Shown here: positions 422-18,635 of the stretch, piece after piece
How the letters are laid out: each line of letters opens with the position of its first letter
Position numbering within the stretch: the first letter of the stretch is position 1
Assembly (NCBI GenBank): GCA_016176685.1
Contig: JACOWS010000001.1
Span: 78,113-142,112, forward strand
DNA from: Patescibacteria group bacterium
GTDB taxonomy: Bacteria; Patescibacteriota; Minisyncoccia; Phycocordibacterales; SBAW01
Reading direction: 5' to 3'
DNA length: 64,000 bases
The notes under the pieces: generated by a model
Databases searched by the model: none
The model's input: the letters and a program-made list of their open reading frames with translations, nothing else
What the model was told of the DNA's origin: nothing
Position numbers and translations under genes: made by a program

Positions 422-869
422 CCTGCGCTTCGCCTCGACCTCATCGCCGCGCTATTCTCCGGAGTAGCGCGGCTTTCTATTTTTATTGAAAAATTATTTG
501 ATTTCATATAAGATTCGGCTGGTATTCGCTTCGAGAATTTTTGGATTGAATGCCGCCAAAGAAAAACTTGAAATTGTCAGCGGTGCGGCTCCCCGCCTGC
601 GCCGAGGCTTCGGCGGGCAGGCGCCGCCTTTCCGAATTTTCGCGGGCCTTCGCCTCGCCGAAGCGGCTTCGGCCACGCAGGCGGGGGATTTTTTCGGAAA
701 AATGCGTTCGGACTAATTCAAGAATACTGCACCAGTTTGCCAGGGTGGCACATTTTCCAGTCTTAACCAGTCTCGCCCGCATTGTCGGTTTGAGCGGGCT
801 CAAGCGAGCTTGCGCATGTACCACATTGTGATACAATCTGGGCATATTGGATAACCACACGAGTCTATG

Positions 870-1148
870 ATGACCAAGCAGGAAATGGTGCGCGCACGCG
901 TCGAGGCGGCGACGAAGAAGAAAGCTGAGACGATCTTGAAGCGCCTGGGCCTCAGTCACAGCGCGTTCATCAACATGAGCTACCACGCCGTGATCGAGAT
1001 GGGGGGCATTCCCTTTTCGACACGCATTCTGAATGCCGAGACAAAGGCAGCGATCGCGGAAGGCCGTCACGAGCATGAGCGCGGTACGCTCACCTCGTAC
1101 GCGTCAACAGCGAAATTGATCAAAGACGCACTGAGTGAATCTGACTGA
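870..1148 (+). CDS. dinJ: type II antitoxin, RelB/DinJ family
   Basis: VRARVEAATKKKAETILKRLGLSHSAFINMSYHAVIEMGGIPF aligns with E. coli DinJ N-terminal ribbon-helix-helix region; immediately upstream of a YafQ-like toxin. Confidence 0.8.
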   Translation: MTKQEMVRARVEAATKKKAETILKRLGLSHSAFINMSYHAVIEMGGIPFSTRILNAETKAAIAEGRHEHERGTLTSYASTAKLIKDALSESD

Positions 1149-1156
1149 CCGGCTCT

Positions 1157-1426
1157 ATGCGCCTTCGCCAGCAGACCAACAAATTCAAGAAGGACCTCAG
1201 GCGCATGGTGCGCCGGGGTGCACGGGTCGACGACCTCGCTGCCGTAATCGATATTCTTGCCGCTGATACGGCCTTGCCCAAGGCGTGCCGCCCACACAAA
1301 TTGGTAGGTGACTATGCCGATCTCTGGGAGTGCCACATCGCGCCTGACTGGCTCCTTATCTATGAATTGCCGGAGGGAGTCGTACTGCTCCATCGCACCG
1401 GTACACATGCCGACCTATTTGACTGA
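1157..1426 (+). CDS. yafQ: type II toxin, YafQ/RelE family mRNA interferase
   Basis: C-terminal HIAPDWLLIYELPEGVVLLHRTGTHADLF matches YafQ HVEPDWILIYKLTDKLLRFERTGTHAALF; 8-bp gap after the antitoxin gene. Confidence 0.8.
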   Translation: MRLRQQTNKFKKDLRRMVRRGARVDDLAAVIDILAADTALPKACRPHKLVGDYADLWECHIAPDWLLIYELPEGVVLLHRTGTHADLFD

Positions 1427-1610
1427 TAGTCACAATTTCCCCCCCCATCACGATTTTCGACCTGTGTGGTACTGTATCCCTTGATGATCTCCTTCACGAA
1501 CGACTCCAACCGAAATGTTCGATTCTTGTCCCGGGTGGGGGCACCAAGATAGCGAGAATAAATAGACGTTAAGGGGAATAAAAAATTAATCATATAATCT
1601 AAATTATTTT

Positions 1611-2021
1611 ATGGAACAAGAATCACGAATATATAAATTTTTTATGACCTTGCCTTTTTGGTGGATACTGTTAACAGCTATCTATGTTGGTCTAACATTT
1701 TCAGGCTGGTTGTATGCGGCAGCATTACTGGGTCTGTTCGTTCCTATCGGGGTGTGGGATATGCTATTCTTTAGATTCGCAATTTCAGGATACCCCGTCG
1801 GAGGAATTGGCCTATGGGACTTTGCCATTGGTTTTGTGTTAGTCTTGCTGACTATTTTTGGTGGGGAATGGCTTATTCGTAAGATCAAATTATCTCCTGC
1901 CATGAAAATTTTTGTTATTCTTGGCATACTTTTTGCGCTAACTATTGTGGTTGATTTTGTTCTCTGGGGGAACTGGCAGACGCTAGAACTTCTTAAAGTA
2001 GGTGGCGAGATAACGATATAA
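1611..2021 (+). CDS. hypothetical polytopic membrane protein
   Basis: low-GC ORF, 4 predicted TM helices, Trp-rich; first gene of the low-GC island. Confidence 0.45.
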   Translation: MEQESRIYKFFMTLPFWWILLTAIYVGLTFSGWLYAAALLGLFVPIGVWDMLFFRFAISGYPVGGIGLWDFAIGFVLVLLTIFGGEWLIRKIKLSPAMKIFVILGILFALTIVVDFVLWGNWQTLELLKVGGEITI

Positions 2022-2035
2022 TTATGCTAAATCTG

Positions 2036-2500
2036 CTATGTTTTGTTCAAATTCTCGTAATAGTTTCTTAGAGCTTCCTCTTGTATTTTATGTAAATGTA
2101 TACTCGGCCTTTTAGATGCAATTAAATCAATTGCTTCCTTTGGTTTATACCCTCTTTGTATCAAATAAGCCGATACCAATGTGGGCGCACGCCCATGACC
2201 GTTTTTGCAATGTACATAGATCTTTCTATTTTGAGATACGAGTTTTTGTATTGACTCCGCGCCGAAAGAAAGTTGGTCTTGAGTGGGAGCCATTTGATCA
2301 ACCACTGGAATCCAAACATATATATCGACGCCAAATGGAACATCGAGACGGTTTTCTTCGAGTGATATATCGGCAGTTATGTTTTCTTTCTTCAACACGT
2401 CGGCAAGACCCATGACACAACACTGATTGGTGCCGATATAGATGCCATCGGTAATGTAACTATATTCCAGTATCGGCGTTTTCGGGTGAGTATGATCCAT
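2036..2500 (-). CDS. dual-specificity / protein-tyrosine phosphatase
   Basis: VHCKNGHGRAPT = HCxxGxxR(S/T) catalytic P-loop of the Cys-based phosphatase family. Confidence 0.7.
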   Translation of the reverse strand: MDHTHPKTPILEYSYITDGIYIGTNQCCVMGLADVLKKENITADISLEENRLDVPFGVDIYVWIPVVDQMAPTQDQLSFGAESIQKLVSQNRKIYVHCKNGHGRAPTLVSAYLIQRGYKPKEAIDLIASKRPSIHLHKIQEEALRNYYENLNKT

Positions 2501-2528
2501 ACTAATATTCGATTAAACCGTTTAAATC

Positions 2529-3953
2529 TTACCCAAAAAGCCGAAATAACATGCGCAAAAGTTTTTTTGAACGCGGGTTTAATGCACGCCCTTGGTATGT
2601 TTGAGCGGCCCGCTTATTGATTCTTGCGGCGGTCGGGTACGGATAAATCTTAGCAAATAAATCGGCAAGAGACAGGTGGTGTGTCTGCGCCAATATAAGT
2701 TCCTGTATAAGTTCACCGGCATGTGGAGCAATCATCGTCCCGCCCAATATGTTCCCTTTCTTTGAAACATAAATATTTAACAGGCCATCGCGATAATCGT
2801 CTGTGATGGCGCGATCATCATGAGAGAAATGTTCTGTAACTGTTTCGTACTGGACACCGCGCTCTTTAAGCTCCTCGGTGGAAATGCCGAATGTTGCAAT
2901 TTCCGGGTCGGTGAATGTAACCCAAGACAGGTTGTCGTTAACGAGCTTCTGTTTAAACGGGGAAAACCAATTATGGATGATGGTACTGGCATGAAGTTCG
3001 GCTGCGTGCGTAAATTGATATTGTCCGGCGACATCACCGCACACGACAATATTTTTATTGGTTGTGCGCAGGTACTGGTCGACTTTCAGTTTCTGCCCGC
3101 TTTCCTCAAGTTCGATATGAGCCTTTCCCAGATCAAGGCCTTCAATAGCAAGCTGCCTGCCAATACCTACAAATAATGAGTCCACCGGAAGCGACAGTTC
3201 ACGCCCCAAAACTTCCACGACGAGCTCTCTGCCCTCTCGTATATTTTTTGCCCGAGCATGGAAAAGGATATTCATTCCTTCGCCCACCAGTCGCTTATAC
3301 AAAATATCGGTAATATCTTTATCCTCTTTTGGAAGAAATTTTTCTCCTTGTTCAAGAATGGTAACCTGTGAACCCAGGCGTTGAAACGCTTGTCCGAGCT
3401 CTATACCGATAGGGCCCCCGCCTATGACGACAAGATTTTTAGGAAGAAAATCTATGTTGAAGATATTTTCATTGTTAAAGACCCGCGTATGCTCTATTCC
3501 CGGCAATGATATAGCGCGTGGTCGCGACCCCGTTGCCAACACAATACGCTTGCCTTCATACGCCACGCCTCCGACCATAACCTTATTTTGACTAATAAAT
3601 TTAGCTTCCCCCAGAACGACCGACATACCGCTTTTCCGAAACCAATCGGCATTTTCATGCTCGCGGATGATATCCTGCCTACTTTTCACATACGCCATAA
3701 CCGCCCGCATGTCCACCGTACCGGTATGGGTAATCCCAAATTTTTTAATGGTATGTCCCGCATGTACCGCGCGAGCGACATGAATAAGCGCTTTGCTTGG
3801 TACACAACCAAAATTCAAACAATCGCCGCCGATGCTCTTATCACTTTTATCAATGAGCAGGGTTGACAATCCTATGCGGTTTGCAAAAGCGGCGATATTC
3901 AACCCTCCGGAACCGGCGCCGATGACCATAACATCAAATATTTTATTTTTCAT
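2529..3953 (-). CDS. FAD-dependent pyridine nucleotide-disulfide oxidoreductase (Lpd/MerA-like, no C-terminal Cys pair)
   Basis: N-terminal VMVIGAGSGG FAD fold; redox-active GGDCLNFGCVPSK disulfide; second NAD(P) Rossmann VVIGGGPIGIELG. Confidence 0.8.
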   Translation of the reverse strand: MKNKIFDVMVIGAGSGGLNIAAFANRIGLSTLLIDKSDKSIGGDCLNFGCVPSKALIHVARAVHAGHTIKKFGITHTGTVDMRAVMAYVKSRQDIIREHENADWFRKSGMSVVLGEAKFISQNKVMVGGVAYEGKRIVLATGSRPRAISLPGIEHTRVFNNENIFNIDFLPKNLVVIGGGPIGIELGQAFQRLGSQVTILEQGEKFLPKEDKDITDILYKRLVGEGMNILFHARAKNIREGRELVVEVLGRELSLPVDSLFVGIGRQLAIEGLDLGKAHIELEESGQKLKVDQYLRTTNKNIVVCGDVAGQYQFTHAAELHASTIIHNWFSPFKQKLVNDNLSWVTFTDPEIATFGISTEELKERGVQYETVTEHFSHDDRAITDDYRDGLLNIYVSKKGNILGGTMIAPHAGELIQELILAQTHHLSLADLFAKIYPYPTAARINKRAAQTYQGRALNPRSKKLLRMLFRLFG

Positions 3954-3957
3954 GTTT

Positions 3958-4620
3958 TTACCTTGATGCTATCCTCGTACTTACATACCAGCTTATAAAA
4001 ATTACGGCTGCGGCAAGAAAAACCAGCGGTTGCAACCACACAGGCAGTGTTCCCGCGTACGCAAATACAAAGGCAAATGGCGTGACCCCGATTACCGTAG
4101 CAAAAAAATATGAACGACTCCCTATATTAGAAAAAAGGCCAATGGCATATGACAATATATCAACCGGTATGAGCATCCTAAGAAAAACAATCGTCCAAAA
4201 CATGTTTTGTGTTGAGAATCGTTCCTCAAATCTGTTTAGCTTATCAATGGAAACAAGTTTTTCCACCAGTGGTTTGCCAAAATATCGCGCAATATGAAGA
4301 GCTATTTGAGCGCCGATTGACCAGCCGATAATAGAAAGTATGGCGGCCGCAACCCACCCCCATAGACCAGCGGCCACGGGGATAAGCGGGATGGTTGAAA
4401 TTGGCGCGACCACTACCGCAAGTATGGTGATAAAAACATAGGCTGCCATGCCAAATGCCCCGCCGCGTTCCGCAAGCATGTTTATTTCACTCGCATATAT
4501 TGTTGCCATAAATGATAAAAAAACAAAAAGGGCGAGCACGAGCGCCAGGCTAAATACTGATGCAACGGCATTTTTATTAAAAATATGATTGGCGCTTTTC
4601 TCCATATATTTATTCAACAA
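3958..4620 (-). CDS. DedA/TVP38-TMEM64 family membrane protein
   Basis: polytopic membrane protein with the DedA-like core FLRMLIPVDILSYAIG. Confidence 0.5.
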   Translation of the reverse strand: MLNKYMEKSANHIFNKNAVASVFSLALVLALFVFLSFMATIYASEINMLAERGGAFGMAAYVFITILAVVVAPISTIPLIPVAAGLWGWVAAAILSIIGWSIGAQIALHIARYFGKPLVEKLVSIDKLNRFEERFSTQNMFWTIVFLRMLIPVDILSYAIGLFSNIGSRSYFFATVIGVTPFAFVFAYAGTLPVWLQPLVFLAAAVIFISWYVSTRIASR

Positions 4621-5545
4621 TCACATCTATTTTGCTTCCAAAAACTTTTGAAGCTTTTTCCGTATAGAGCGCTATATTATCTTTAAAATACGGCGGGTGC
4701 TGTTTTTGAATTTGTGCGACAATATAATAACCAATGGCCATCATAGCGGCGTACCCGGCATCTTTTGGAAGCGGTATAGAAAGTCTCCTATCTGGCTCGC
4801 CCCACATAGTATTTTCCTCGCCAAAGCTCACAAAAAGCTCGTTCGAAGGCACTACGGTTACCGCATGTTTCATATATTCGCTGGTTTCCACATCGCGAGC
4901 AATCTTTCTTCCGAAAAGCTCAATGAACTTTACTTCAAGCATTCGTACAATACCTGAAAACCTTGGAGGAACGATGAAAAAATAGGAATCATACTGCGAA
5001 AAGTCTGGGAAGATAATGGTGTCTATCTGTTCTTTAATAAATTCCTGTATTTTCTCCGGGTCTTCGTTCGTTTTCCCTAAAATCATTCCCAAATAGGTAG
5101 AGGTATTATAGGTATACGGCTCGCGATTTTTTGGAAATATAAATATATCGCCAGACTCGACAAATTCTTTTACGGGCGCATCAGAATTGTTGGTAATGAG
5201 AGTAACTTTCTTGCCGAGCTCTTTCGCCCGCTTTGCTATAATCGGCGCGTGTTTCCCGCCGGACGCGGAGATAAGAATTACACCGTCAATATCGGGGATG
5301 TACTTTAGTTTACTTTCAAAATTACTCTCTGAAGCGAAGACTGCGTCTGTGTCTTCAAAAATAATTCTCCCGGTTGCTTCAGCATTACCAGACCCGACCA
5401 CGAGCGGGCGTTTATACTTTAAAATATCTAATTTCGGCAATGCTTGTTTTTGAAAAAGTTCAAGTGCGCCCAAGACCGCCACATCCAAGTCGGGAATGGT
5501 GTTTAAAGTAAATGTATTAAGAATATCAATGTTTTTATGATTCAT
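4610..5545 (-). CDS. SIS-domain-like protein, possibly phosphoglucose/phosphomannose isomerase type (uncertain)
   Basis: two Gly/Ser-rich nucleotide/sugar-phosphate binding-like segments (PLVVGSGNAEATGRI, GVILISASGGKHAPII); co-directional and immediately downstream of zwf-gnd. Confidence 0.3.
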   Translation of the reverse strand: MNHKNIDILNTFTLNTIPDLDVAVLGALELFQKQALPKLDILKYKRPLVVGSGNAEATGRIIFEDTDAVFASESNFESKLKYIPDIDGVILISASGGKHAPIIAKRAKELGKKVTLITNNSDAPVKEFVESGDIFIFPKNREPYTYNTSTYLGMILGKTNEDPEKIQEFIKEQIDTIIFPDFSQYDSYFFIVPPRFSGIVRMLEVKFIELFGRKIARDVETSEYMKHAVTVVPSNELFVSFGEENTMWGEPDRRLSIPLPKDAGYAAMMAIGYYIVAQIQKQHPPYFKDNIALYTEKASKVFGSKIDVIVE

Positions 5546-5556
5546 AATTTTAAGTA

Positions 5557-7956
5557 CTATATTTTATGTCCGCCAAAAACAGCGCGAAGCATGGAAAGAA
5601 TTTTTCCCGTAAATGTCGGGTTCTTTTTTGAGCGTACACGGAAGAGATACGAATCTTTTATGACAGGAGCAGAAACGTCGAGCTCTTTTGCAGTCTGTAC
5701 CGTCCATTCTCCCTCGCCGGTATGAGCCACGGTACTGGATGCTTTTTTCAAGTCATCGCCATACTCTTTAAACCCCTCTTCCAGCCACCCGGTAAGTCGT
5801 GAGGTAATAATGCTGTTTTGATTGTACACATTGGCAACCTCTCGCAGACGAAACTTAAACGGCGCTTTTTGAAGTATTGCAAACCCTTCCGAGAGCGCCT
5901 GCATCATCCCATACTCAATGCCGTTATGAACCATTTTTGCGAAGTGTCCCGCTCCAGCCGCTCCCATATGTCCAGAAGTCGTATCAGACATCGCGTCAAA
6001 AATTGATTTACTGTTCTCATATATTTTTTTATCTCCCCCCACCATAATGGCAAATTTTCCAAGGGCGATAGAGACTGGTCCGCCGGAGACGCCCACATCG
6101 AGAAAATGGATTCCTTTTGCTTTCAATCGCTTTCCTCGACGAACAGAGTCTTTATAGAAAGAATTACCACCGTCAATTACGGTGTCGTCTCTTTTGAGTA
6201 ATTGTGAAAGGCCATTTTGCTTCATCCCGGGCGAAGTCGATTGACCAAAGAGTATCTCGTCCACCGGTTTCCCGGCCGGGACCATAAGCCATATGGTTCG
6301 CGGAGGGGAAAGTTTTTCCACAAATTCCGAAAGAGAATATGCGCCGACCACGCCTTCTTTCTCAAGCTCTTTTGTGGCTTCAGGCGGCGTGTTGAATCCA
6401 ACAACCCTCCATTTTTTTATACTTAGGCGTCTTGCAAGATTGGCACCCATTTTCCCTAAACCGATAATGCCAATCTCTCCGATGTGGTTGCCTACTTCTT
6501 TATCTGCACTGTCTGACAATTCTCTCGTGAAAGACGGGCCGGGGGTACTGTCGGGTTTATATTCGGTCAAAGGCACGAGATTTTGCCTCCATCCCTCTAC
6601 TACCGGATCGGTAAATTTCCAAGATACCAGCACCTCATCGGAAGAGATAAACAAGGTTTGGTCACCTCCCATGGCAGTATTGATAATTTTTGAATACTCT
6701 TCTATATACTGAACTTTTGTCTCTTTTTCATACAAAAAGAAAGAGAAAACGCGTTCTTCTATGGCTTTTTCAAAACCTGGTTTTTTTGTCCAAAAATGTA
6801 TGATGACTTCATCGTTTGGTTCAAGACGAAACACAATTCTGTTTGGAGCATGCGGCCTTTGTGCACACAGAAGACATATTTTTGGGTGCCTAAGCGTCAA
6901 TACTATTTCTTTACGGGCTTCTCCCATGCGCTTCCCAGCTTCCATATATATGGGAATCCCGCTCCAACGAGGATGCAGGAGCTCTGTTTTTAGAGCGAAG
7001 TATGTTTCCGTCTCCGAATTTTGAGCTACCCCCTTTATATCTTTGTAGTTACGGTACTGTGATCTGAAAGTTTCTTTCCGCAGGGTTTCCTCTGTCCACG
7101 GTTTAAGCGTTTCCAAAATAGTTGCTCTGTTTTTCCGTATCCCGCCAGCATTCATATCGGCAGGGTACTCCATAGTAATCGCGGCCAGCATGGTAAGAAT
7201 ATGGTTTTGTCCGACATCACGAAGCGCTCCGACTGAATCATAAAAACCTCCTCTGTCTTCTACCCCAATAGATTCAAGCAGGCGGATATCAATCCGCTCA
7301 ATCATGGTGTTGTCCCAAGCATTCTCAAAAAGATTATTTGAGAAACGAAAGTTTTCTATTCCCTGAATAATTTCCTTGTATAAGTAATGGTCGATTCTAT
7401 ACATTTGCTCTTCTTTGAAATAAGTGGAGAGGAGCGATTGCAGTTTTTTGGCGCTTGACAGATCCGTCCCGAATGGTTTTTCAATCAAAATACGGCTCCA
7501 CCCCATATCTCCTCCGCAGGGCAAGTTAAGTTTTGCTAGAGCGAGATTTTTGAAGATTCGCTCATACGAAGACGGCGGTACGGCAAGATAAAAAAGTTTA
7601 TTGGCGCATATACCCCAACCGTTTTCTATCTCTGCAATGCGGTCTGATAAAGATTGAAACGCTCCCACGTCCTCGAATGTTCCTGCGTGATAGGTGAAGA
7701 GTTCAAAGAAACGGTCAATCTTTTTATCTTCTATTTTTGAATCTGCATGTTTTTTTACCGCTTGGAGAATCAGATTTTTAAACTCTTTATCCGAAAACTC
7801 TCTTCGTGAAAACCCTATGACAGACAAGCGTTCCGGCAAGCGACCATGCTGAAATAGGTGCCAAAGGGACGGTATAATCTTTTTGGCGGCCAAATCTCCC
7901 GTTACACCAAAAATAGTGAAGATGGAAGGCGTATTTTTTATGTTTTCACTACTCAT
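5557..7956 (-). CDS. zwf: fused glucose-6-phosphate dehydrogenase / 6-phosphogluconate dehydrogenase (Zwf-Gnd)
   Basis: N-terminal half has G6PD signatures (FGVTGDLAAKKIIPSL NADP site; EKPFGTDL; C-terminal YKPDSTPGP). C-terminal about 300 aa is a short-type 6PGDH (IGIIGLGKMGANLARRL Rossmann, GHFAKMVHNGIEYGMMQ). Start taken at MSSENIK (7956). Confidence 0.8.
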   Translation of the reverse strand: MSSENIKNTPSIFTIFGVTGDLAAKKIIPSLWHLFQHGRLPERLSVIGFSRREFSDKEFKNLILQAVKKHADSKIEDKKIDRFFELFTYHAGTFEDVGAFQSLSDRIAEIENGWGICANKLFYLAVPPSSYERIFKNLALAKLNLPCGGDMGWSRILIEKPFGTDLSSAKKLQSLLSTYFKEEQMYRIDHYLYKEIIQGIENFRFSNNLFENAWDNTMIERIDIRLLESIGVEDRGGFYDSVGALRDVGQNHILTMLAAITMEYPADMNAGGIRKNRATILETLKPWTEETLRKETFRSQYRNYKDIKGVAQNSETETYFALKTELLHPRWSGIPIYMEAGKRMGEARKEIVLTLRHPKICLLCAQRPHAPNRIVFRLEPNDEVIIHFWTKKPGFEKAIEERVFSFFLYEKETKVQYIEEYSKIINTAMGGDQTLFISSDEVLVSWKFTDPVVEGWRQNLVPLTEYKPDSTPGPSFTRELSDSADKEVGNHIGEIGIIGLGKMGANLARRLSIKKWRVVGFNTPPEATKELEKEGVVGAYSLSEFVEKLSPPRTIWLMVPAGKPVDEILFGQSTSPGMKQNGLSQLLKRDDTVIDGGNSFYKDSVRRGKRLKAKGIHFLDVGVSGGPVSIALGKFAIMVGGDKKIYENSKSIFDAMSDTTSGHMGAAGAGHFAKMVHNGIEYGMMQALSEGFAILQKAPFKFRLREVANVYNQNSIITSRLTGWLEEGFKEYGDDLKKASSTVAHTGEGEWTVQTAKELDVSAPVIKDSYLFRVRSKKNPTFTGKILSMLRAVFGGHKI

Positions 7957-7972
7957 TGTCTTTATGTTGCCA

Positions 7973-8188
7973 TTATGCAAGCAACCCCATAACCTGAAAG
8001 ATATACCCGACAATGATTAACATGATACCCGCAATCCCCATGATTCGCTCCGTCCCCATTTCTTTTACGACACGAGAATCAATCGCGTGCTCTTTACGCG
8101 CACGATCGTGCACCTGAAGAACGGTATAGGCAATCAGAACGGTTCCGATGACATCAAGAGTAATTCCGATAATTAAGAAGGCTGTCAT
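7973..8188 (-). CDS. small membrane protein (hypothetical)
   Basis: 71-aa ORF with two TM helices, co-directional in island operon. Confidence 0.35.
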   Translation of the reverse strand: MTAFLIIGITLDVIGTVLIAYTVLQVHDRARKEHAIDSRVVKEMGTERIMGIAGIMLIIVGYIFQVMGLLA

Positions 8189-8613
8189 ACAAATATTTTT
8201 TTAGTAAGATACATTGAAAGAGGCAGTAAGAAAGTCATTTGAAGAATCGGGGTAAGGCCGACCTTTAGATACGGAATAATCGGCATACCCTCCGCATAAG
8301 CCCATCGCTCGAACAGCAAGGCGCGCCATTCAATCCCTACGGCTATTAAGAATCCAATGACGGCAAAAACGGCAAAATCTTTTTTGTTTAGCGTAGAAAT
8401 CCAATTACGGTCATTTTTTAATAACGCGACAATAAAATAAACAAATAAGGTAACGGCGACATCGCCTATGGTGCCAACTACACATATCGGGAAATGCAAA
8501 GAAAAAGATGCATACCCTTGGTACAAAGGCGCTTGCATATTCTCCCAGACGACATGCAGAACAAACGCAATAAGAGATAAAAAAATAATTTGTTTTCCTA
8601 CTTTCATATACAA
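8185..8613 (-). CDS. membrane protein (hypothetical)
   Basis: 142 aa, 4 TM helices, immediately downstream of merA-like gene, 4-nt overlap. Confidence 0.45.
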   Translation of the reverse strand: MYMKVGKQIIFLSLIAFVLHVVWENMQAPLYQGYASFSLHFPICVVGTIGDVAVTLFVYFIVALLKNDRNWISTLNKKDFAVFAVIGFLIAVGIEWRALLFERWAYAEGMPIIPYLKVGLTPILQMTFLLPLSMYLTKKIFV

Positions 8614-10031
8614 CAGCTTAGTTTAGAAATATCTTTCGTAAATGAAAGTGCGACAATCTTTATCGCCTCCGATAGAGTAGGAAACATCGGGAGCGAATTG
8701 ACCACATCGTCAATCGTATTTTTGTTTTTTATGAGCATCATCGCCTCGGCAATCAGCTCGCTCGCATTTGGAGCGAGAATATGAACGCCTAAGATTTGTT
8801 TTGTGTGCGGATGGATCGCCATTTTTATCATTCCCTCGGTGCGATGAGTAATGATCGCTTTCGGTACATCGGCAAGCGAAACGGTGCGGCAGGCGCACAC
8901 CCCCATTTGCTTCATCTGCTCGTCCTCGGTGAAGCCGACACCGGCGAGTTGTGGGTCGGTAAAAATAGCGTAAGGGACAGTGTGATAGTCAATAAACAAT
9001 TGCGCGTCTTTGAGGGCGTTTTCAGCGGCGAGCGTGCCCTCGCGTCCGGCGGTTGACTCCAGCCGCAAGGGTCCGCTCGTAACATCGCCGACCGCAAAAA
9101 TATTTTTGTTGGAAGTTTGAAAATTTTGATTAACGATAACCGCCTGCCGCTTATCTACTTCAACGCCGGCCAAATCAAGTCCCAGTCCTTGCGTGTTGGG
9201 TGTTTTGCCCGCCGCCAAAAGTATTTCATCTCCCGATACTTCTTCCGATTTTCCATTTACGAGATACGAGATTATCTTTTTATCGTTTTCTTTTCGCGCG
9301 CTTTTCACCTCGACATTGGTCTTGATGGTAATTCCTTCTTTTGACAACACTTCGGCGAGTCGGTCGGTGAGCGTTTTTTCAGAGTGCGGAAAAATTGAAT
9401 CGCCGCGTTGTAAAATAGTTACCTTTGTGCCAAAACGGCTGAACATTTGGGCAAATTCCAAGCCAAGCGGGCCCGCGCCGATGATAACCAATTCTTTCGG
9501 CTGACGCGGAAGGCGCAGTGCCTCAATATGCGAGACAAATCCTACTTCTTTAATTCCTTCAATCTCCGGAACATTGGCGGTCGAGCCGGCAGCGATAATA
9601 AATTTTTCCGCGCTCAACTTTTCGCCGGCTTGCCCCGAGCTTGTCGAGCGGGTCACTTCCACCTCGTTTTCGGAAACAAATGTTGCTTTTCCCTCAACGA
9701 GCGTTACATACTCTAGACTTTTCAGTACCTTCTCGTATTTTTCTTGACGCAATTTGTCCACAAGCGAGAGTTCATCTTGCACGACTTTTTGAAAATCAAA
9801 ACTTTTTACTTCAAGCTCAACACCGGCGACGCCGTGATGTTTGGCGTGGTGCAAAATTTCTCCGGCCCAGAGAAGCGTCTTTGACGGTACGCACCCGACA
9901 TTGACGCAAGTGCCGCCGAGCGGAAGCCCGTCATTGATGATCGCCGTTTTCGCCTTCAGTTCGTTGGCACGGATAGCGGAGGCAAATGCGCCTGCGCCGC
10001 CGCCGATGATGATTAGGTTAAATTCTTGCAT
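8604..10031 (-). CDS. merA: mercuric reductase-like flavoprotein (MerA core, no N-terminal metal-binding domain)
   Basis: IIIGGGAGAF FAD site; GGTCVNVGCVPSK redox disulfide; C-terminus ...KDISKLSCCI matches MerA C-terminal vicinal Cys pair (Tn501 ...KDVKQLSCCAG). Confidence 0.75.
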   Translation of the reverse strand: MQEFNLIIIGGGAGAFASAIRANELKAKTAIINDGLPLGGTCVNVGCVPSKTLLWAGEILHHAKHHGVAGVELEVKSFDFQKVVQDELSLVDKLRQEKYEKVLKSLEYVTLVEGKATFVSENEVEVTRSTSSGQAGEKLSAEKFIIAAGSTANVPEIEGIKEVGFVSHIEALRLPRQPKELVIIGAGPLGLEFAQMFSRFGTKVTILQRGDSIFPHSEKTLTDRLAEVLSKEGITIKTNVEVKSARKENDKKIISYLVNGKSEEVSGDEILLAAGKTPNTQGLGLDLAGVEVDKRQAVIVNQNFQTSNKNIFAVGDVTSGPLRLESTAGREGTLAAENALKDAQLFIDYHTVPYAIFTDPQLAGVGFTEDEQMKQMGVCACRTVSLADVPKAIITHRTEGMIKMAIHPHTKQILGVHILAPNASELIAEAMMLIKNKNTIDDVVNSLPMFPTLSEAIKIVALSFTKDISKLSCCI

Positions 10032-10090
10032 AAAGTTATGCGGGAAGACGCTCCTTGAGCATATCAGCAACGGCGGAAAATGTATATTGA

Positions 10091-10849
10091 TTAAAGGTAA
10101 TCCAACAGACAGTCATAATTTATAAATTGGAATAATTGATAGCCGTAGGAGATAAGCAGTCCGATTTTCCCGGAGACCAAAAGTATGCCGAGGAACACCA
10201 GGAAGATACCGCCGATAATTGAAATAGCGTTAAGATATTTAGAAATATTTTTGATGTAGCGGGAAGCCGAACCGATGCCAATGGCAATGAGCAAAAACGG
10301 AATTGCCAAACCGGCGGAAAAAACGGTAAGCAGCAGTCCGCCCTGCAGGGCGCTGCCGGAGGTAGACGCTAAAAGTAAAACGGAGCCCAATATCGGCCCA
10401 ACACACGGAGTCCAACCGAAAGAGAAAGCCGATCCGAGGATAAAAGAGTTTATCGGTTTTCCCTGCTTAAAAAGAGCCGGGACTTTCAACTGCTTTTCTC
10501 GCATTAAAAACGGAATTTTCAACACATTCAACATGAACAGCCCGAAGATGATGACAAAAACTCCCCCAATTCTCCCAAGCCACAATCGATACGGGGCGAG
10601 AAACGAGGCCGCGATAAAGCCAACGAGCGTTCCCATAATAATAAAGACTGCACTGAACCCAAGCATAAAGAAGAGACCATTGAGTAAAATTTTCCAGCGC
10701 GCGCGCTTCGCCTTTTCCGGGTCTTTAAGGTCATCCAAGGACGCTCCGCTGATAAACCCTAAATAGCCGGGCACCAACGGGAGAGTGCAGGGCGCCAAAA
10801 AAGTGAGCATACCAGCGATAAAGGCGGGGATGATAAGTGATAAGTCCAT
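10091..10849 (-). CDS. ccdA: cytochrome c biogenesis / thiol-disulfide transporter CcdA (DsbD core) family
   Basis: 6 TM; conserved Cys in TM1 (FLAPCTLPLVPGY) and TM4 (GWTPCVGPILG) diagnostic of CcdA/DsbD-beta. Confidence 0.8.
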   Translation of the reverse strand: MDLSLIIPAFIAGMLTFLAPCTLPLVPGYLGFISGASLDDLKDPEKAKRARWKILLNGLFFMLGFSAVFIIMGTLVGFIAASFLAPYRLWLGRIGGVFVIIFGLFMLNVLKIPFLMREKQLKVPALFKQGKPINSFILGSAFSFGWTPCVGPILGSVLLLASTSGSALQGGLLLTVFSAGLAIPFLLIAIGIGSASRYIKNISKYLNAISIIGGIFLVFLGILLVSGKIGLLISYGYQLFQFINYDCLLDYL

Positions 10850-10864
10850 AATTATTTATCTAAT

Positions 10865-11398
10865 TTATGATGATATTAATTTCTGAATCTTTTGGCGAAT
10901 TTCGTTGATATCCATCGGCCCTCGCTTATGCTCTGCAATGGCGCCGTTCCTGTCAACAAAAATCGTTTCGGGCATTGAAAAACCGCTGATGGCCTGATAA
11001 AACGAATCGCCTTGGTCAAGAAGAAAAATCAAATCATTGCTCGTGCCTTGCATATCGGTGTAACCTTTTGCCACTGCTAGGCTCTCTTGCCTGTTTATCG
11101 CGATAATAACAACTTTGTCGCCGAATTCTTTTTGCGCCGTTACGAAATCCGGAAGTTCTTTTCTGCAAAAAGGGCACCACGCCGCCCAAGCATTGATCAC
11201 CAACGGTTTGCCCGAAAAATCGGCAAGGGTTACTGTTTTTCCATTATAATCTTTCAAGGCAAGATTTTTAATGGATGAATCCAGGCTCACGATGCTTACA
11301 TCGGCGGGTTGACTTGAACTACCGCGCTGGAGAACTATAACGATCACTCCCAAAACAACCGCGACGATCGCAATAGAAATAATTATTTTTGCGTTCAT
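10865..11398 (-). CDS. TlpA/ResA-like thioredoxin-fold thiol-disulfide oxidoreductase, membrane-anchored
   Basis: N-terminal TM anchor; VINAWAAWCPFCRKELP = WCxxC thioredoxin motif. Confidence 0.75.
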   Translation of the reverse strand: MNAKIIISIAIVAVVLGVIVIVLQRGSSSQPADVSIVSLDSSIKNLALKDYNGKTVTLADFSGKPLVINAWAAWCPFCRKELPDFVTAQKEFGDKVVIIAINRQESLAVAKGYTDMQGTSNDLIFLLDQGDSFYQAISGFSMPETIFVDRNGAIAEHKRGPMDINEIRQKIQKLISS

Positions 11399-11423
11399 AG
11401 ATTTTAGAATAGATTATTACAAT

Positions 11424-12452
11424 TCATTGTAATAATTCCGTGTCGGGATGCGCGGCAACCCAGGAAAACCAGAACGAGCCGAACGGATTGATGCGCTCAC
11501 GCGTCCCATCGGCTTTCTTTTCATAGAGGCGAATAGCGTCAATGTCTTTCTCATATTCCGCGATAATTATTTTGCCTTGAAAAGAATCTTCAACTACTCC
11601 AATTTTCTTGACCGCCGTCGGCCAATATGCCTTGGCTTTACCGTCCACCACTATTCCCAAAACAAACTCTTTTTCACTCAGCCGATTATCTTTTTTATCG
11701 ACCGGGAAAAAAGTGCCGGGTGAAGTATAGTAGTCCCCATACGGGTCTTGTCCGTAAAATCTTGCCGCTCCGGTGTCTTGCGAAAGCACCTCGCCATTCG
11801 GATGAAGTTTCCGCCAATCCCCGAATCGAATCTGGTCTGACGGCAAGACTTCAAGCCGCGTTCCGGTCTTTTCTCCAACGATTGCTTCGCCTAAAATCTG
11901 CGACCACAACGAATCGGTTTTGCGGTCATACATTACCAAGTTGGAATTCCAAAGCTTGCCGGATGTGCCGAATTCCACTCGTTCTCCGTCCACCATTGGG
12001 GCAAAAACAATTCCCGACAAACACAGCGGGCAGTAGGTAACGAGCACTCGCCGGCCGTTAATAGTATCGTTGACGATTTCGTGCCACACCAAAATTTGAA
12101 ATGGATAAAAACGGCTCACGTTGTCCATTTCAAGCGCCAGACCGGGCTCGGTGTCTTGCAACTGCTTGCTCGCCTCACTGATAGAAATAAATTTTGGACG
12201 GTCAATGGAGGGAATGCCGTCTTTTGCGGGACCGCCGCCCAGGATAGAATCCAAGGGAACACTATGTTTTACTCCGTTTGTAACCATAATTTCTTTATTT
12301 ACTTCACCGCCGTTGTCTAGAATCGTGATTGTTTCTTCTTTGGCTTCTCCACCTTTCGGCAAAGAAAAATCGTCTCTTATAAATCGCTGCCACAATATAA
12401 CGGCAATCGTCGCGATAAAAATAACTATAATTATTGCGCTACTTTTTTTCAT
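11424..12452 (-). CDS. DUF3179-family exported protein
   Basis: N-terminal anchor; GGGPAKDGIPSIDRPKF and YCPLC segments characteristic of DUF3179. Confidence 0.55.
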   Translation of the reverse strand: MKKSSAIIIVIFIATIAVILWQRFIRDDFSLPKGGEAKEETITILDNGGEVNKEIMVTNGVKHSVPLDSILGGGPAKDGIPSIDRPKFISISEASKQLQDTEPGLALEMDNVSRFYPFQILVWHEIVNDTINGRRVLVTYCPLCLSGIVFAPMVDGERVEFGTSGKLWNSNLVMYDRKTDSLWSQILGEAIVGEKTGTRLEVLPSDQIRFGDWRKLHPNGEVLSQDTGAARFYGQDPYGDYYTSPGTFFPVDKKDNRLSEKEFVLGIVVDGKAKAYWPTAVKKIGVVEDSFQGKIIIAEYEKDIDAIRLYEKKADGTRERINPFGSFWFSWVAAHPDTELLQ

Positions 12453-12654
12453 GGATTTTTTCCCAAAGTTCTAACCCTCTTCGGAACAGTCTCCAGTCTT
12501 TGCCAAGACATTTTAAGCAACTCCCAAAACGTTCGCCCGCTTTTAAATATTGTTTATTACCGCAGGGCACGCATATATAAAGACCGTCCTCAGGTACCGT
12601 TGCCCCTACTTTATACGTATCTGCTTGATTTTGTTTTCTTGAAAATAATTTCAT
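12439..12654 (-). CDS. small zinc-ribbon protein
   Basis: CVPC-x14-CLKC four-Cys ribbon; 14-nt overlap with downstream gene. Confidence 0.4.
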   Translation of the reverse strand: MKLFSRKQNQADTYKVGATVPEDGLYICVPCGNKQYLKAGERFGSCLKCLGKDWRLFRRGLELWEKIHEKK

Positions 12655-12666
12655 TGATGTATAGGT

Positions 12667-13173
12667 TTAATTGATAAGCGAGGTAATATCTGATTCCTGG
12701 ATATCTCCGGGAATAGTACGAACAAGGTTACCGTTTATATCTATCAGAAGATGGGTATTGGTGTACTGAATGCCGAAAGCGCGCGAGATGCGGCCGCTAG
12801 GATCAAGCGCGATGGGGAACGTAATGCCTTTTGTTGCGATAAATTTTTCTATGGTTGACTCTGATTCCTGAAGATTAACCCCGACAACCTCCACCTTATC
12901 CTTGTATTTTTCATAAAAACGATTAAGGTTCGGCATATCGCGGCGGCAGTTTGGACACCACGAAGCCCAAAAATCAACCACGACTGGTTTCTTTCCCCTA
13001 AACTCCGCGAGTGTTATCGTGCCACCACCCAACTTCTGTAGCGTAAAATCCGAAACGGCGGCAGTATGCACTGAAGCGGTACCGGGAGTGGCATTGCTAC
13101 TGGAGAATTTGCCGAACACCAAAAGACCTACCACAACCACCACTACGCCCACGATAAGAAATTTTGTACTCAT
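12667..13173 (-). CDS. TlpA/ResA-like thioredoxin-fold thiol-disulfide oxidoreductase, membrane-anchored (second copy)
   Basis: N-terminal TM; VVDFWASWCPNCRRDMP WCxxC motif. Confidence 0.75.
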   Translation of the reverse strand: MSTKFLIVGVVVVVVGLLVFGKFSSSNATPGTASVHTAAVSDFTLQKLGGGTITLAEFRGKKPVVVDFWASWCPNCRRDMPNLNRFYEKYKDKVEVVGVNLQESESTIEKFIATKGITFPIALDPSGRISRAFGIQYTNTHLLIDINGNLVRTIPGDIQESDITSLIN

Positions 13174-13184
13174 ATGCTTGGACT

Positions 13185-13421
13185 TTACGTAATCCCCAAA
13201 AGCTTTCGAAGTTTTGGCTCGTCAAAACCCGTTACCATCTCATTATCGACCAAAATGACCGGTACGCCCATTTGGCCACTTTTTTGAATCATTTCATCAC
13301 GTCTCGCAGAATCTTCCGAAACGTCATAGTCAGTGAACGCAATAGTGTGTTCCTTGAAAAATTCTTTAGTCGCATGACAGAAGTGACACGTTGGCGTTGA
13401 ATACATAATTACGTTTTTCAT
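13185..13421 (-). CDS. glutaredoxin/NrdH-like redoxin
   Basis: MYSTPTCHFCHATKEFF CxxC at the N-terminus of a ~78-aa thioredoxin fold; GVPVILVDNE motif. Confidence 0.7.
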   Translation of the reverse strand: MKNVIMYSTPTCHFCHATKEFFKEHTIAFTDYDVSEDSARRDEMIQKSGQMGVPVILVDNEMVTGFDEPKLRKLLGIT

Positions 13422-13466
13422 AGTGTTTTTAAGTTATTTTTTAATTACATTACTTTGATAATTCTT

Positions 13467-14057
13467 TTACTCACGGGCCTTTTTCAATGCTCGTGCCCAC
13501 CACAAAAGCTGGGTGATCATGGTTTCTGCTTTCTTTGACTGCGAAGCAAATAGGTCTTTAGCTTCCGTCTTGCCGAATACCACTGGAAAATACTGTTCAC
13601 CCGGAATGTGTACGGCCGCTCGGATAGGTGCCATTTGAAGCTCGATGGCATTCATGCGCAACTGTTCAATGGCGCGCGCACCTCCGGCGCTACCATAACT
13701 CACAAAGGCAACCGTCTTGTTATTCCATTCCGGATACACCCAATCCAGCGCGTTTTTTAGCACGCCGGATGTTCCGTGGTTGTATTCGGGCGTGACGATG
13801 ACAAAAGCATCGCCTTCTTCTATTTTTTTGGTAAAACGCGCGACCGCTTCGTTTTTATATGGTTCTTGTTTGAATGACGGACTTACTGCTTCATTAAAAA
13901 ATGGCATTTCGTAGTCGCGCAAGTCAAGCACTTCAACCACGACCCCTTCCTGTTTCCCGATTTCTTCGGCAATCCACAGAGCAGCCTTGTCACTAAATCG
14001 ACCCTCACGAGTGCTACCGGCAATTACTTTAATAGTAAGTGATGCGTTGTTTTTCAT
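13467..14057 (-). CDS. NADPH-dependent FMN reductase family protein
   Basis: IKVIAGSTREGRFS and VIVTPEYNHGTSGVLKNALDW are signature segments of the FMN_red (ArsH/ChrR/YieF) family. Confidence 0.75.
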   Translation of the reverse strand: MKNNASLTIKVIAGSTREGRFSDKAALWIAEEIGKQEGVVVEVLDLRDYEMPFFNEAVSPSFKQEPYKNEAVARFTKKIEEGDAFVIVTPEYNHGTSGVLKNALDWVYPEWNNKTVAFVSYGSAGGARAIEQLRMNAIELQMAPIRAAVHIPGEQYFPVVFGKTEAKDLFASQSKKAETMITQLLWWARALKKARE

Positions 14058-14064
14058 ATTACTT

Positions 14065-14373
14065 TTACATTACACTGATAATCTTCTTAATTTTTGGGTC
14101 CTCTATCTTTGGCCTGTAGCACATCATCTGCCCCATCTTTTCGCCCTCGATCATTCTCGACATCTCAAGTATCCGCAGGTGTTGCGATACTGCCGATACT
14201 GAAATATCCAGGACATTGGCAAGGTCGGTGACACACAATTCCCCTTGTTCGATAAGAAGTTTTATAATAAGAAAGCGATTCTGGTCTCCAAGCAAACCAA
14301 ACACATCGACCAAAGAAGTGCTTTGTGCCTTAAGGGTTTCCTTAATTTTTGATATTTGCGCTGGTTCTAACAT
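14065..14373 (-). CDS. ArsR/SmtB-family metalloregulatory transcription factor
   Basis: winged HTH LIIKLLIEQGELCVTDLANVLDISVSAVSQHLRILE; first gene of the minus-strand redox operon. Confidence 0.75.
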   Translation of the reverse strand: MLEPAQISKIKETLKAQSTSLVDVFGLLGDQNRFLIIKLLIEQGELCVTDLANVLDISVSAVSQHLRILEMSRMIEGEKMGQMMCYRPKIEDPKIKKIISVM

Positions 14374-14473
14374 ATTTAAGTATTTGCGTTAATGCTTAAA
14401 TATTACTCCCACCCATAACAATAGTCAAATCCATCATGTGGATAACCGAACCGTACCATTCGCTTCGCTACTA

Positions 14474-14545
14474 TCCTCTCGGCAGGAATCGAACCTGCAT
14501 CGCCTCCTTCGGAGGGAGGTATCTTATCCATTAGACTACGAGAGG
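14474..14545 (-). tRNA. tRNA-Arg (anticodon CCG)
   Basis: reverse complement folds as CCTCTCG/CGAGAGG acceptor, D-arm GTCT..AGAT, anticodon stem CCTCC/GGAGG with loop CTCCGAA, T-arm GCAGG-TTCGATT-CCTGC; CCA not encoded. Confidence 0.85.
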
Positions 14546-14585
14546 TCTCTGCGTAAGAGTACCTACGCCTTGAGTCAGCCCACAG

Positions 14586-14825
14586 CTAGGCAAGCATCCG
14601 CGCTACCTTGGCCTTGCGGCGGGCGGCGGTGTTCTTCTTTATGATGCCTCGCTTCTGCGCTTTGTCTATCGCTTTGTAGGCAGCGGCGAGCGCCGCTGTG
14701 TCGCCCTGCTTTGCGCTGCGCGCCGCTTTGAGCGCGGCGCGCAGCGCGTCTTTGCGCGCATCATTAAACACCTTGCGGCGCAAACTTTGGCGGTAGGCTT
14801 TTTTAGCTGACGATGTAATTGCCAT
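14586..14825 (-). CDS. rpsT: 30S ribosomal protein bS20
   Basis: MAITSSAKKAYRQSLRRKVFN...GIIKKNTAARRKAKVARM aligns with S20 (SAKKR..HKN.AAR.K). Confidence 0.85.
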   Translation of the reverse strand: MAITSSAKKAYRQSLRRKVFNDARKDALRAALKAARSAKQGDTAALAAAYKAIDKAQKRGIIKKNTAARRKAKVARMLA

Positions 14826-14901
14826 GAGCCCATACAGTACCCCATAAAGATGCCGAGGGCAAGAAAGTGACGTTTTGCGCAGGACAACCTATAGTGGAGG
14901 G

Positions 14902-15489
14902 ATGATAGGCAAGCTCACCGGGATATTCTGCGGCACCACCCCCGAGGGGGCTGCCATTGTAGAGGTGGGCGGAGTTGGCTACGCGGTGCGGGTGCCGCTT
15001 GCGACGCTGAACAGTATGCACGCAGACCGCAAAACCTTTTCTCTTTTTATACATACCGCGGTGCGCGAAGACGCGATAGACCTCTATGGCTTCCCCACCG
15101 AAGAGGAGTTGGCATTTTTTAAAGAGCTCTTGGGAGTGTCGTCCATCGGCCCCAAAACGGCGCTCGGCATACTCAACATAGCCGACGTCGCGACATTAAA
15201 GCGCGGCATCGCCGCGGGCGATGCCGCCATACTTACCAAAGTGTACGGCATCGGCAAAAAAAGCGCGGAGCGCATTGTGGTGGAATTGCGCGACAAGCTC
15301 GCGAACGAAAGCAGGGCCCGCGGCGAAAAGGTTGGCACGAGCGAAGATGCCGAGGTCATAGAGGCCTTATTGGCGCTTGGTTACGGCGCGGCCGAAAGCC
15401 GCCAGGCGCTAAAAAAAGTCGATCAAGAGCTTGTCGGGGTGCGCGAGCGCCTTTCGGCGACGCTCAAAAAGCTCGGCTCGGCCTCATAG
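14902..15489 (+). CDS. ruvA: Holliday junction DNA helicase RuvA
   Basis: MIGKLTGIF...VGGVGYAVRVP...DLYGFPTEEELAFFKELLGVSSIGPKTALGIL...LTKVYGIGKKSAERIVVEL matches RuvA domains I-III. Confidence 0.85.
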   Translation: MIGKLTGIFCGTTPEGAAIVEVGGVGYAVRVPLATLNSMHADRKTFSLFIHTAVREDAIDLYGFPTEEELAFFKELLGVSSIGPKTALGILNIADVATLKRGIAAGDAAILTKVYGIGKKSAERIVVELRDKLANESRARGEKVGTSEDAEVIEALLALGYGAAESRQALKKVDQELVGVRERLSATLKKLGSAS

Positions 15490-15494
15490 GCGAT

Positions 15495-16781: not shown

Positions 16782-16786
16782 CATAT

Positions 16787-17783: not shown

Positions 17784-17799
17784 CATATTACTGTACAAT
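17772..17799 (+). promoter_or_regulatory. sigma-70-like promoter (TTGACA-16-TACAAT)
   Basis: TTGACA 17772-17777 and TACAAT 17794-17799, 16-nt spacer, about 40 nt upstream of ATG 17840 with GGAGGGGG RBS. Confidence 0.4.
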
Positions 17800-17839
17800 A
17801 CTTCATTGGTTGAACATGAACAAACCCTTGGAGGGGGCC

Positions 17840-18389: not shown

Positions 18390-18424
18390 ACTCGCTACCA
18401 ACAAATGGTAGCGAGTCTTTTTTC
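18390..18424 (+). terminator. rho-independent terminator
   Basis: ACTCGCTACCA-ACAA-ATGGTAGCGAGT hairpin followed by CTTTTTTCTCTC. Confidence 0.55.
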
Positions 18425-18467
18425 TCTCAACGTCTCCGTCGCCGCCGGTGTGGCGATGTTTGCACTA
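18423..18467 (+). repeat. direct repeat copy 2 (encodes the same 15 aa then LN-stop)
   Basis: see copy 1; lies just after the cassette terminator and 95 nt before tRNA-Lys. Confidence 0.8.
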
Positions 18468-18634: not shown

Positions 18635-18635
18635 C

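Follow-up and report, generated by a model that had tools for sequence, protein, structure and literature searches.

A low-GC redox gene cluster beside a tRNA-Arg(CCG) gene in a Patescibacteria chromosome and its probable horizontal acquisition

Genes and boundaries of the low-GC block

Here we describe a block of low G+C content (GC) at ~1.44–14.47 kb of a 64,000-nt stretch of contig JACOWS010000001.1, from a Patescibacteria group bacterium. The whole of this stretch is hereafter called the window and all coordinates refer to it. The block lies between a RelB/DinJ–YafQ toxin-antitoxin pair and a tRNA-Arg(CCG) gene and holds 19 genes, 18 of which are tightly packed, co-directional, headed by an ArsR/SmtB-family regulator and encoded on the minus strand. 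An initial annotation of this DNA had placed nearly all of the genes on the minus strand and had described the cargo as metal/redox resistance functions, a phosphatase and a fused enzyme of the pentose phosphate pathway (PPP). The strand count agrees with this description and the cargo is borne out by Pfam and NCBIfam matches. The conserved core of the cluster, 2027–14447, recurs on other contigs from the Candidate Phyla Radiation (CPR); these are described below and denoted by L numbers.

The regulator (14065–14373; NF033788, 73.9 bits, cut-off 55) is the first gene of the cluster. It has 82–89% amino-acid identity to its counterparts at five loci and contains two Cys residues, but not the canonical CVC motif. 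Alignment of the regions upstream of the ArsR genes reveals a conserved promoter/operator-like region on the same strand (14374–14447) with a −35 box TTGACT and a −10 box TAATAT. A 9-nt inverted repeat (14372–14380 / 14395–14403), invariant across the aligned clusters, runs over both the −10 box and the start codon of ArsR. The regulator is followed by an NADPH-dependent FMN reductase (13467–14057; PF03358, 5e-40; 87–91% amino-acid identity to L083 and L167) and a glutaredoxin with a CHFC motif (13185–13421; PF00462, 1.3e-19; 86% nucleotide identity to L166).

A group of predicted extracytoplasmic thiol proteins comes next. Two redoxins with N-terminal hydrophobic anchors, one with a WCPNC motif (12667–13173; PF00578, 4e-27) and one TlpA/ResA-like with a WCPFC motif (10865–11398; PF08534, 4e-20), enclose a 71-aa four-Cys zinc-ribbon-like open reading frame (ORF) without a family match (12439–12654) and a DUF3179 protein with an N-terminal anchor and a CPLC motif (11424–12452; PF11376, 1.3e-88). 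Downstream lies a CcdA/DsbD-type transmembrane thiol-disulfide electron transporter (10091–10849; PF02683, 9.8e-17) in which both transmembrane cysteines are present, in the motifs APCTLP and TPCVGP. The succeeding gene encodes the core of a mercury(II) reductase, MerA (8604–10031; TIGR02053, 518 bits, cut-off 454.45; 100% identical to protein P0241), which has no NmerA domain but retains a CVNVGC active site and a C-terminal Cys-Cys pair. Its stop codon is overlapped by a gene for a 142-aa membrane protein (8185–8613; 80–82% amino-acid identity to L166 and L169).

A small membrane protein of 71 aa (7973–8188) precedes the fused enzyme, as a 71-aa gene does at the same place in related clusters. 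The fusion itself (5557–7956; 799 aa; 100% identical to protein P0001) joins glucose-6-phosphate dehydrogenase (G6PD) to 6-phosphogluconate dehydrogenase (6PGDH) and is referred to as Zwf-Gnd. It exceeds the cut-off of the zwf model TIGR00871 (462.7 bits, cut-off 400.6) and of the gnd-related models NF007161 (321, cut-off 271) and TIGR00872 (309.9, cut-off 297.2). After it come a 311-aa double-SIS phosphosugar-isomerase-like protein (4610–5545), a VTT/DedA-family membrane protein (3958–4620; PF09335, 2.6e-15) and, paired with the latter, a class-I pyridine-nucleotide disulfide oxidoreductase of 474 aa with a CxxxxC motif (2529–3953). This oxidoreductase was assigned through Pfam, has 83% amino-acid identity to L081, L083 and L167, and scores 436 bits against NF004991, below the cut-off of that model. 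A dual-specificity phosphatase (2036–2500; PF00782, 1.8e-15; 87.6% amino-acid and 87% nucleotide identity to L166) is the last gene of the conserved cluster. Beyond it lies the sole plus-strand gene of the block, encoding a low-GC membrane protein of 136 aa (1611–2021), with neither a family match nor a homolog among all fetched loci.

The 311-aa protein consists of two tandem SIS (flavodoxin-like) domains and has no sequence match in Pfam, NCBIfam or the PDB. A single-sequence AlphaFold model reached a predicted local distance difference test score (pLDDT) of 47 and was discarded; an alignment was built from library representatives instead. The family is small, with only 265 clusters among 1.84 billion representatives. 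In the close (79–86%) relatives examined its gene follows the Zwf-Gnd fusion, a transaldolase standing between the two in L167/L168.

The base composition of the block sets it apart. Its GC is 44.3% within 1440–14400, compared with 53.1% for the remainder of the window, and 13 non-overlapping 1-kb segments of the block (mean 44.3±2.5%, range 40.1–49.0) differ clearly from 41 host-like segments of the same size (54.9±2.5%; Mann-Whitney p=8e-8). GC at third codon positions (GC3) is 0.38–0.56 for genes of the block and 0.60–0.74 for most host genes, and GC-normalised tetranucleotide correlations are 0.89–0.95 among host segments but 0.72–0.74 between block and host. Thus the block differs from the host in sliding-window GC, tetranucleotide usage and codon usage, the three comparisons that the initial annotation had proposed.

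Both edges are sharp. In 200-nt windows the GC falls from 0.61 (1200–1399) to 0.345 (1500–1699) on the left, placing the edge at ~1450–1550, and rises on the right from 0.40 (14300–14499) to 0.58–0.635 (14500–14799), placing the edge at 14447–14474. The toxin-antitoxin pair has a GC of 57.7%, the right flank (14546–17185) 57.5% and the sequence on the left 53.7%. With flanks of ~57% and a block of ~44% the step is therefore about 13 points; the sharply bounded low-GC block stands as first described, whereas a drop from 60% to 40% was an overstatement.

The left-hand pair comprises a RelB/DinJ-type antitoxin of 93 aa (867–1148, plus strand; PF04221, E=2.8e-11) and, 8 nt downstream, a YafQ-type toxin of 89 aa (1157–1426, plus strand; PF15738, E=4e-30), which is the type II RelB/DinJ–YafQ arrangement. 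Pfam thus confirms the identity of the pair. Its role as an edge of the island, as initially annotated, is not shown; the pair has a host-like GC and stands outside the low-GC block. It is absent from all fetched loci, including 80 related ones (for the antitoxin, no tblastn match), and may itself be accessory. Between it and the block is an intergenic transition (1427–1610), over which GC passes from ~0.6 to 0.35, with no attachment (att) repeat and no significant tRNA remnant. A tRNA-like string in this transition (GTTCGATTC...CACCA, 1515–1547) was considered as a decayed tRNA-Arg(GCG) and rejected: Rfam reports no tRNA there at E ≤ 10, and local alignment to related tRNA-Arg genes gives scores of 18–24, equal to the background elsewhere in the window.

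On the opposite side the tRNA-Arg(CCG) gene is intact, of the host lineage and located, by ARAGORN and Rfam, at 14474–14545, exactly as had been annotated; it is encoded on the minus strand and its 3′ end points towards the block. Homology shared with the other clusters starts precisely at GGTTATCCACAT (14447), and host-side homology, in alignment with host relatives, stops at the tRNA 3′ end (14474). The 26-nt junction in between (14448–14473) matches neither related clusters nor related host genomes. At the left end nucleotide homology to L166 stops at 2027, and no fetched locus holds a relative of 1440–2027, a stretch that takes in the plus-strand membrane ORF.

Related clusters in other CPR lineages

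Close relatives of the cluster were found in other CPR lineages. Proteins from Uhrbacteria- and Roizmanbacteria-labelled bins share 84–86% identity with the Zwf-Gnd fusion. Relatives of the fusion number thousands at E ≤ 1e-20, and the named ones among the best 120 all belong to CPR lineages. A metagenome scan with the fusion returned only relatives of ≤60% identity and was swamped by generic 6PGDH peptide patterns.

The gene order of the block is shared by L081–L085 and L166–L169, whose overall GC is 38–45%. In the Roizmanbacteria-type loci L083–L085 (GC 38–39%) the order is ArsR (82%), FMN reductase (87%), glutaredoxin, DUF3179 (54%), redoxin (62%) and CcdA (62%), succeeded by an FMN reductase, a 71-aa gene and the fusion (83%), after which come the 311-aa protein (81%), VTT and the disulfide reductase (83%). 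The Uhrbacteria-type loci L081/L082 (GC 43%) have the right-hand half of this order, and the groundwater contigs L166, L167/L168 and L169 repeat the pattern. L166 and L169 also carry the 142-aa membrane protein and the phosphatase, which has 88% identity in L166 and is cut off by the contig end in L169.

Nucleotide identity to these clusters is uneven along the block: 87% over 2027–2501, 79–81.5% over 2520–8178 and 84–88% over 13184–14447, with ≤64% in the middle, from MerA to DUF3179 (~8.6–12.7 kb). MerA has relatives of its own, proteins of 79–90% identity that are labelled as many CPR phyla and as a few lineages outside the CPR; their contexts are ArsR-MerA-MerT-HMA or ArsR-MerA-fusion-reductase. 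Since the middle has separate relatives, the block is a mosaic of modules that recur together. Further modules, absent from the window, occur in L083, L166, L167 and L169, namely DUF3105, DsbA, a Mqo/DAO-type oxidoreductase, DoxX, a 325-aa thioredoxin-reductase-like protein, a weak MerT-like protein, transaldolase, and an alpha-amylase with a ROK kinase; MerT-like genes are present in L166, L169, L171 and L172. The content of the cluster appears, from these comparisons, to be shuffled module by module.

Codon-level comparison with the nearest copies gave 0.5–1.5 synonymous substitutions per site (dS) and a ratio of nonsynonymous to synonymous change (dN/dS) of ~0.1. The low ratio indicates that the genes are under purifying selection and functional, and the high dS means that no sampled contig is the direct donor. 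In L081–L085, L166 and L173 the GC of the cluster equals that of its neighbours, and there is mild contrast in L167, L169 and L171/L172. Eight distinct cluster contexts were examined: no listed gene belongs to an integrase or transposase Pfam family and none of the clusters abuts a tRNA gene. In L081/L082 a tRNA-Thr and a tRNA-Gly are located ~1 kb downstream of the cluster.

The locus in host relatives and the origin of the block

By its gene sequences the host is placed as a Candidatus Adlerbacteria-like bacterium (Paceibacteria, CPR/Patescibacteria). The best matches of the Mur ligase encoded next to the block are labelled Candidatus Adlerbacteria, Paceibacterota and other Patescibacteria, at 50–72% identity. 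When one genome from each GTDB species was scanned with this ligase, 80 loci were obtained, reaching up to ~9 kb on the tRNA/ruvA side, in which the order S20-RuvA-Mur-membrane protein-SpoU-tRNA-Lys-holA-PolA is kept at 55–72% protein identity. None of the 80 contains the fusion, either disulfide reductase (the 474-aa protein or MerA), the double-SIS protein, the FMN reductase, ArsR, DUF3179, the dual-specificity phosphatase or VTT. A few hold weak paralogs of CcdA, a redoxin or a small membrane protein, at 30–38% identity. The comparison with related genomes proposed in the initial annotation thus returned 80 syntenic loci without the signature genes of the block.

Two further features were observed around the SpoU gene of the window. 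The SpoU methylase gene has its 3′ end duplicated in a 44-nt direct repeat (17721–17764 / 18423–18466; 91% identity, 702 nt apart). The two copies each encode ...SLNVSVAAGVAMFAL and then a stop, and a complete alternative ORF is regained if 17720 is joined to 18423. The 3′ end looks like the site of a ~0.7-kb insertion carrying its own replacement end; a small ORF there (17678–18166) has no family match. Moreover, a free-standing LAGLIDADG_3 endonuclease-like ORF (18636–19469; 40.5% GC) starts 1 nt past tRNA-Lys(TTT) (18562–18635). Most of the 25 relatives listed do not show it, and a copy with 54% identity occurs in L019 near SpoU and membrane-protein genes.

Upstream of ruvA, 15 relatives have both a tRNA-Arg(GCG) and a tRNA-Arg(CCG) gene, which in 9 of the 15 are 8–33 nt apart. 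In the two closest relatives, L001 and L002, the two genes are convergent, with unrelated genes filling the 4.5 and 7.4 kb between them. The tRNA-Arg(CCG) gene of the window, 330 nt from ruvA, is likewise on the minus strand. The sequences suggest that this tRNA-Arg slot is a variable hot spot with different cargo in different hosts. In L001 (4487–8323) and L002 (6147–8486) the slot holds giant Gly_rich_2 proteins, with a local GC of 58–70% in L001.

Taken together, these data make it very probable that the ~1.44–14.47 kb block is a genomic island acquired horizontally by an Adlerbacteria-like chromosome, as the initial annotation had proposed. Absence from the 80 relatives, variability of the slot and copies with 79–88% nucleotide identity in other CPR contigs all support this reading, and none of these depends on composition. 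The island core would then be one mosaic copy of a modular, ArsR-headed redox operon common to distant CPR lineages of lower GC, occupying a variable slot next to the 3′ end of tRNA-Arg(CCG).

An alternative is that the composition reflects native heterogeneity and that the cluster is ancestral in the lineage and was lost from the sampled relatives. Across the whole window ~20 of 64 1-kb segments are below 48% GC, and dnaN/dnaA (32013–34816) lie ~10 points below the host average. We rejected a foreign origin for the latter. DnaA is 80–84% identical across most of its best 120 matches, the labelled ones mostly Paceibacteria and including the genome of L002, and one protein, P0121, is 95% identical. 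In the L002 relative, with 47% GC, the two genes (8001–10670 of L170) dip to 43–45% (GC3 0.39 and 0.34) with the same PBP1-dnaN-dnaA synteny. The dnaA/dnaN trough is therefore native, and low GC by itself is no proof of transfer in this genome, a caution already given in the initial annotation. However, an ancestral cluster would have to have been lost at all 80 related loci. Nor would it explain why proteins of the island are 80–91% identical to those of related clusters, and its DNA 79–88% identical to that of contigs labelled as other CPR classes, whereas host core proteins reach 55–72% with their nearest relatives. It also leaves unexplained a tetranucleotide signature nearer to the genome of L167 than to the host (r=0.86, GC-normalised, between the island and a non-homologous core-gene flank of that donor-like locus). 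We consider native origin the least probable of the explanations weighed here, and extremely so.

Two other low-GC stretches of the window are noted here. Between PBP1 and dnaN, 30933–32002 encodes a HAD hydrolase (36.7% GC) and a 136-aa ORF (38%) with GC3 of 0.30–0.35. As PBP1 and dnaN are adjacent in L170, this is probably a second small insertion. A block at 53270–55579 (42–44% GC) has three ORFs, one of 485 aa without a Pfam match, and tetranucleotide usage unlike that of both host and island (r ~0.2; the segment is short and the estimate noisy).

The block could also be an artefact, a low-GC contig of some other CPR organism joined to this one during assembly or binning at a conserved tRNA gene. 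The source is a metagenome-assembled genome and one junction does lie at a tRNA, which is a cross-species repeat. Since the higher GC occurs on both sides of the block, two independent mis-joins would be needed; moreover, homology of the island ends 26 nt before the tRNA rather than inside it, and the GC step at ~1450–1550 would remain even were the join at the tRNA false. A chimera is thus highly improbable.

Several results count against acquisition as read above, or against our ability to say how it came about. No integrase or transposase is encoded among the island proteins, with every ORF assigned and intergenic gaps of <300 bp; the lack of an integrase had been remarked on in the initial annotation and holds within the window. 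A direct repeat of the tRNA-Arg 3′ end, which that annotation had suggested seeking near the left edge, is absent there (seed 10 with minimum length 14; 12-mers with one mismatch). With no integrase and no att duplication, the mechanism of insertion is inferred only. No tRNA-Arg(GCG) was found in 1–1440, so the variable slot probably extends further left, with its limit on that side beyond the window. Composition alone is not diagnostic here, given the native low GC of dnaA/dnaN. No sampled copy is closer than ~80–88% nucleotide identity, so the transfer is not very recent. Finally, the comparison contigs take their lineage labels from metagenome bins, some contigs being unbinned, and no core gene is common to the host and the cluster-bearing genomes within the fetched flanks; the phylogenetic discordance therefore rests on lineage labels together with synteny.

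How the island entered can be addressed tentatively. One route is integrase-mediated insertion into the 3′ end of tRNA-Arg(CCG), the integrase and the distal att site having decayed or lying left of the window past the RelB–YafQ pair. In favour of this route, the tRNA whose 3′ end adjoins the island is intact, the variable slot is already under way where the window begins, as no tRNA-Arg(GCG) is seen, and an accessory toxin-antitoxin pair is found at the far side. However, the GC boundary has no repeat of the tRNA 3′ end, the tRNA-like string at 1515–1547 is within noise, the eight cluster contexts are free of integrase and transposase families with none abutting a tRNA, and the toxin-antitoxin pair has a host-like GC. 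On balance we regard this route as unlikely, but as the chief alternative to the one preferred below.

Recombinational capture is the entry route that we favour, although with some reserve. Host genes elsewhere in the window (23015–24697, 40120–45942, 55631–57193) specify a PilB/T2SSE ATPase, a P-loop ATPase of the TraG type, a TrbL/VirB6-like protein and a ComM-like Mg-chelatase-family protein, and this PilB, TraG/TrbL-like and ComM-like machinery could, judging by the families represented, import or exchange DNA. As no recombinase or att site is seen in the island or in the cluster contexts, and the host has PilB, ComM and parts of a type IV secretion system, DNA that had been taken up was perhaps captured by recombination at the tRNA-flanked hot spot, and a self-encoded site-specific recombinase is less likely.

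Proposed function and relation to known systems

The gene content suggests a single physiological theme. The Zwf-Gnd fusion is predicted to be an NADPH-generating module, and the NADPH could be spent by MerA (reducing Hg2+ to Hg0), the 474-aa disulfide reductase, the FMN reductase and the glutaredoxin. CcdA, the two anchored TlpA-like redoxins and DUF3179 would make up an extracytoplasmic thiol-reducing branch. Given the place of its gene after the fusion, we infer that the double-SIS protein supplies or recycles glucose-6-phosphate, and it may do so by isomerising fructose-6-phosphate, thereby feeding or cycling the pathway. The ArsR/SmtB repressor would bind the 9-nt inverted repeat over the −10 box and let go under stress from thiol-reactive metals or oxidants, and the 18 co-directional genes would be transcribed mainly from the promoter ahead of ArsR. 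Once induced, the operon would link the oxidation of sugar phosphates to the reduction of Hg(II) and to the repair of thiols both within the cell and outside it. Two gaps in the gene set speak against this scheme: the island proteins include no Pfam match to MerT or HMA and likewise no MerP, MerC, MerR or MerB, and no lactonase family was matched in the island by Pfam or NCBIfam, so that a 6-phosphogluconolactonase was not found.

Literature searches found no paper on this operon or island, on a CPR Zwf-Gnd fusion or on the double-SIS family. It is an evenly balanced judgement whether the cluster represents an undescribed, integrase-less, modular operon that joins NADPH supply to thiol/mercury defence and passes between distant CPR phyla as a whole, with shuffling of its modules. 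These modules would be ArsR, FMN reductase, glutaredoxin, CcdA/redoxins/DUF3179, Zwf-Gnd, a new family of double-SIS isomerases and the VTT/disulfide-reductase pair, with MerA or a thioredoxin-reductase-like gene optional.

Several parts of the operon can be compared with known systems. A fused oxidative-PPP enzyme is known from Plasmodium, where GluPho joins G6PD to 6-phosphogluconolactonase (6PGL). Unlike GluPho, the island fuses steps 1 and 3 (G6PD and 6PGDH) and has no lactonase. The MerA equivalog, its CxxxxC motif and C-terminal Cys pair, and the ArsR/SmtB regulator are shared with mer operons, including the CPR loci L171/L172 (ArsR-MerA-MerT-HMA). The island differs from these in its lack of MerT/MerP/MerC, MerR and MerB, and its MerA is positioned mid-operon, 4 kb from the regulator. 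The Bacillus CcdA-ResA system is a comparable combination of a CcdA conduit and an anchored thioredoxin-fold protein. A CcdA-type conduit with surface-anchored CxxC thioredoxin-fold proteins likewise occurs in the CcdA-Etrx-MsrAB2 system of Streptococcus pneumoniae (PMC3914529). In contrast to such CcdA-Etrx/TlpA systems, the island is without MsrAB and cytochrome c maturation genes and the partner is DUF3179, with its CPLC motif.

The island as a whole has much in common with tRNA-associated genomic islands: odd composition, a place beside the 3′ end of a tRNA, cargo for stress resistance, a toxin-antitoxin neighbour and the lack of a counterpart in close relatives. It differs from them in having no integrase, att repeats or mobility genes and in consisting of a single co-directional operon, and where related copies of the cluster occur elsewhere they have no tRNA directly beside them. 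Genomic islands are frequent in groundwater Patescibacteria, most transfers being within the phylum (PMC12455944). Those islands, detected by composition, come from the same phylum and type of habitat as ours. The main text of that study mentions neither pentose, mercury, oxidative stress, tRNA or integrase, nor an ArsR/Zwf-Gnd/MerA/CcdA cluster and its near-copies across phyla. The oxidative PPP is patchy in CPR, with low phylogenetic depth (PMC7304191), and CPR MerA has been ascribed to lateral transfer (PMC8261052).

In summary, it is well supported that the island is a further example of a known phenomenon, and its additional value is in a recurrent, portable operon architecture and a newly placed protein family. 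The locus shows how such a trait travels, as a compact, self-regulated operon found at ~80–90% identity in contigs labelled as several CPR phyla and here in a tRNA-flanked hot spot of a host of higher GC. The operon is predicted to tie NADPH production to mercury reduction, to disulfide reduction in the cytoplasm and to the export of reducing power. The locus provides a defined unit, with a testable regulator/operator pair, for studying CPR adaptation to oxygen and metals, and it gives DUF3179 and the unannotated double-SIS enzyme family a clear functional setting. If the proposal of an exchanged operon is true, the cluster would offer fermentative epibionts with minimal genomes a portable means to survive in oxic or metal-laden groundwater.

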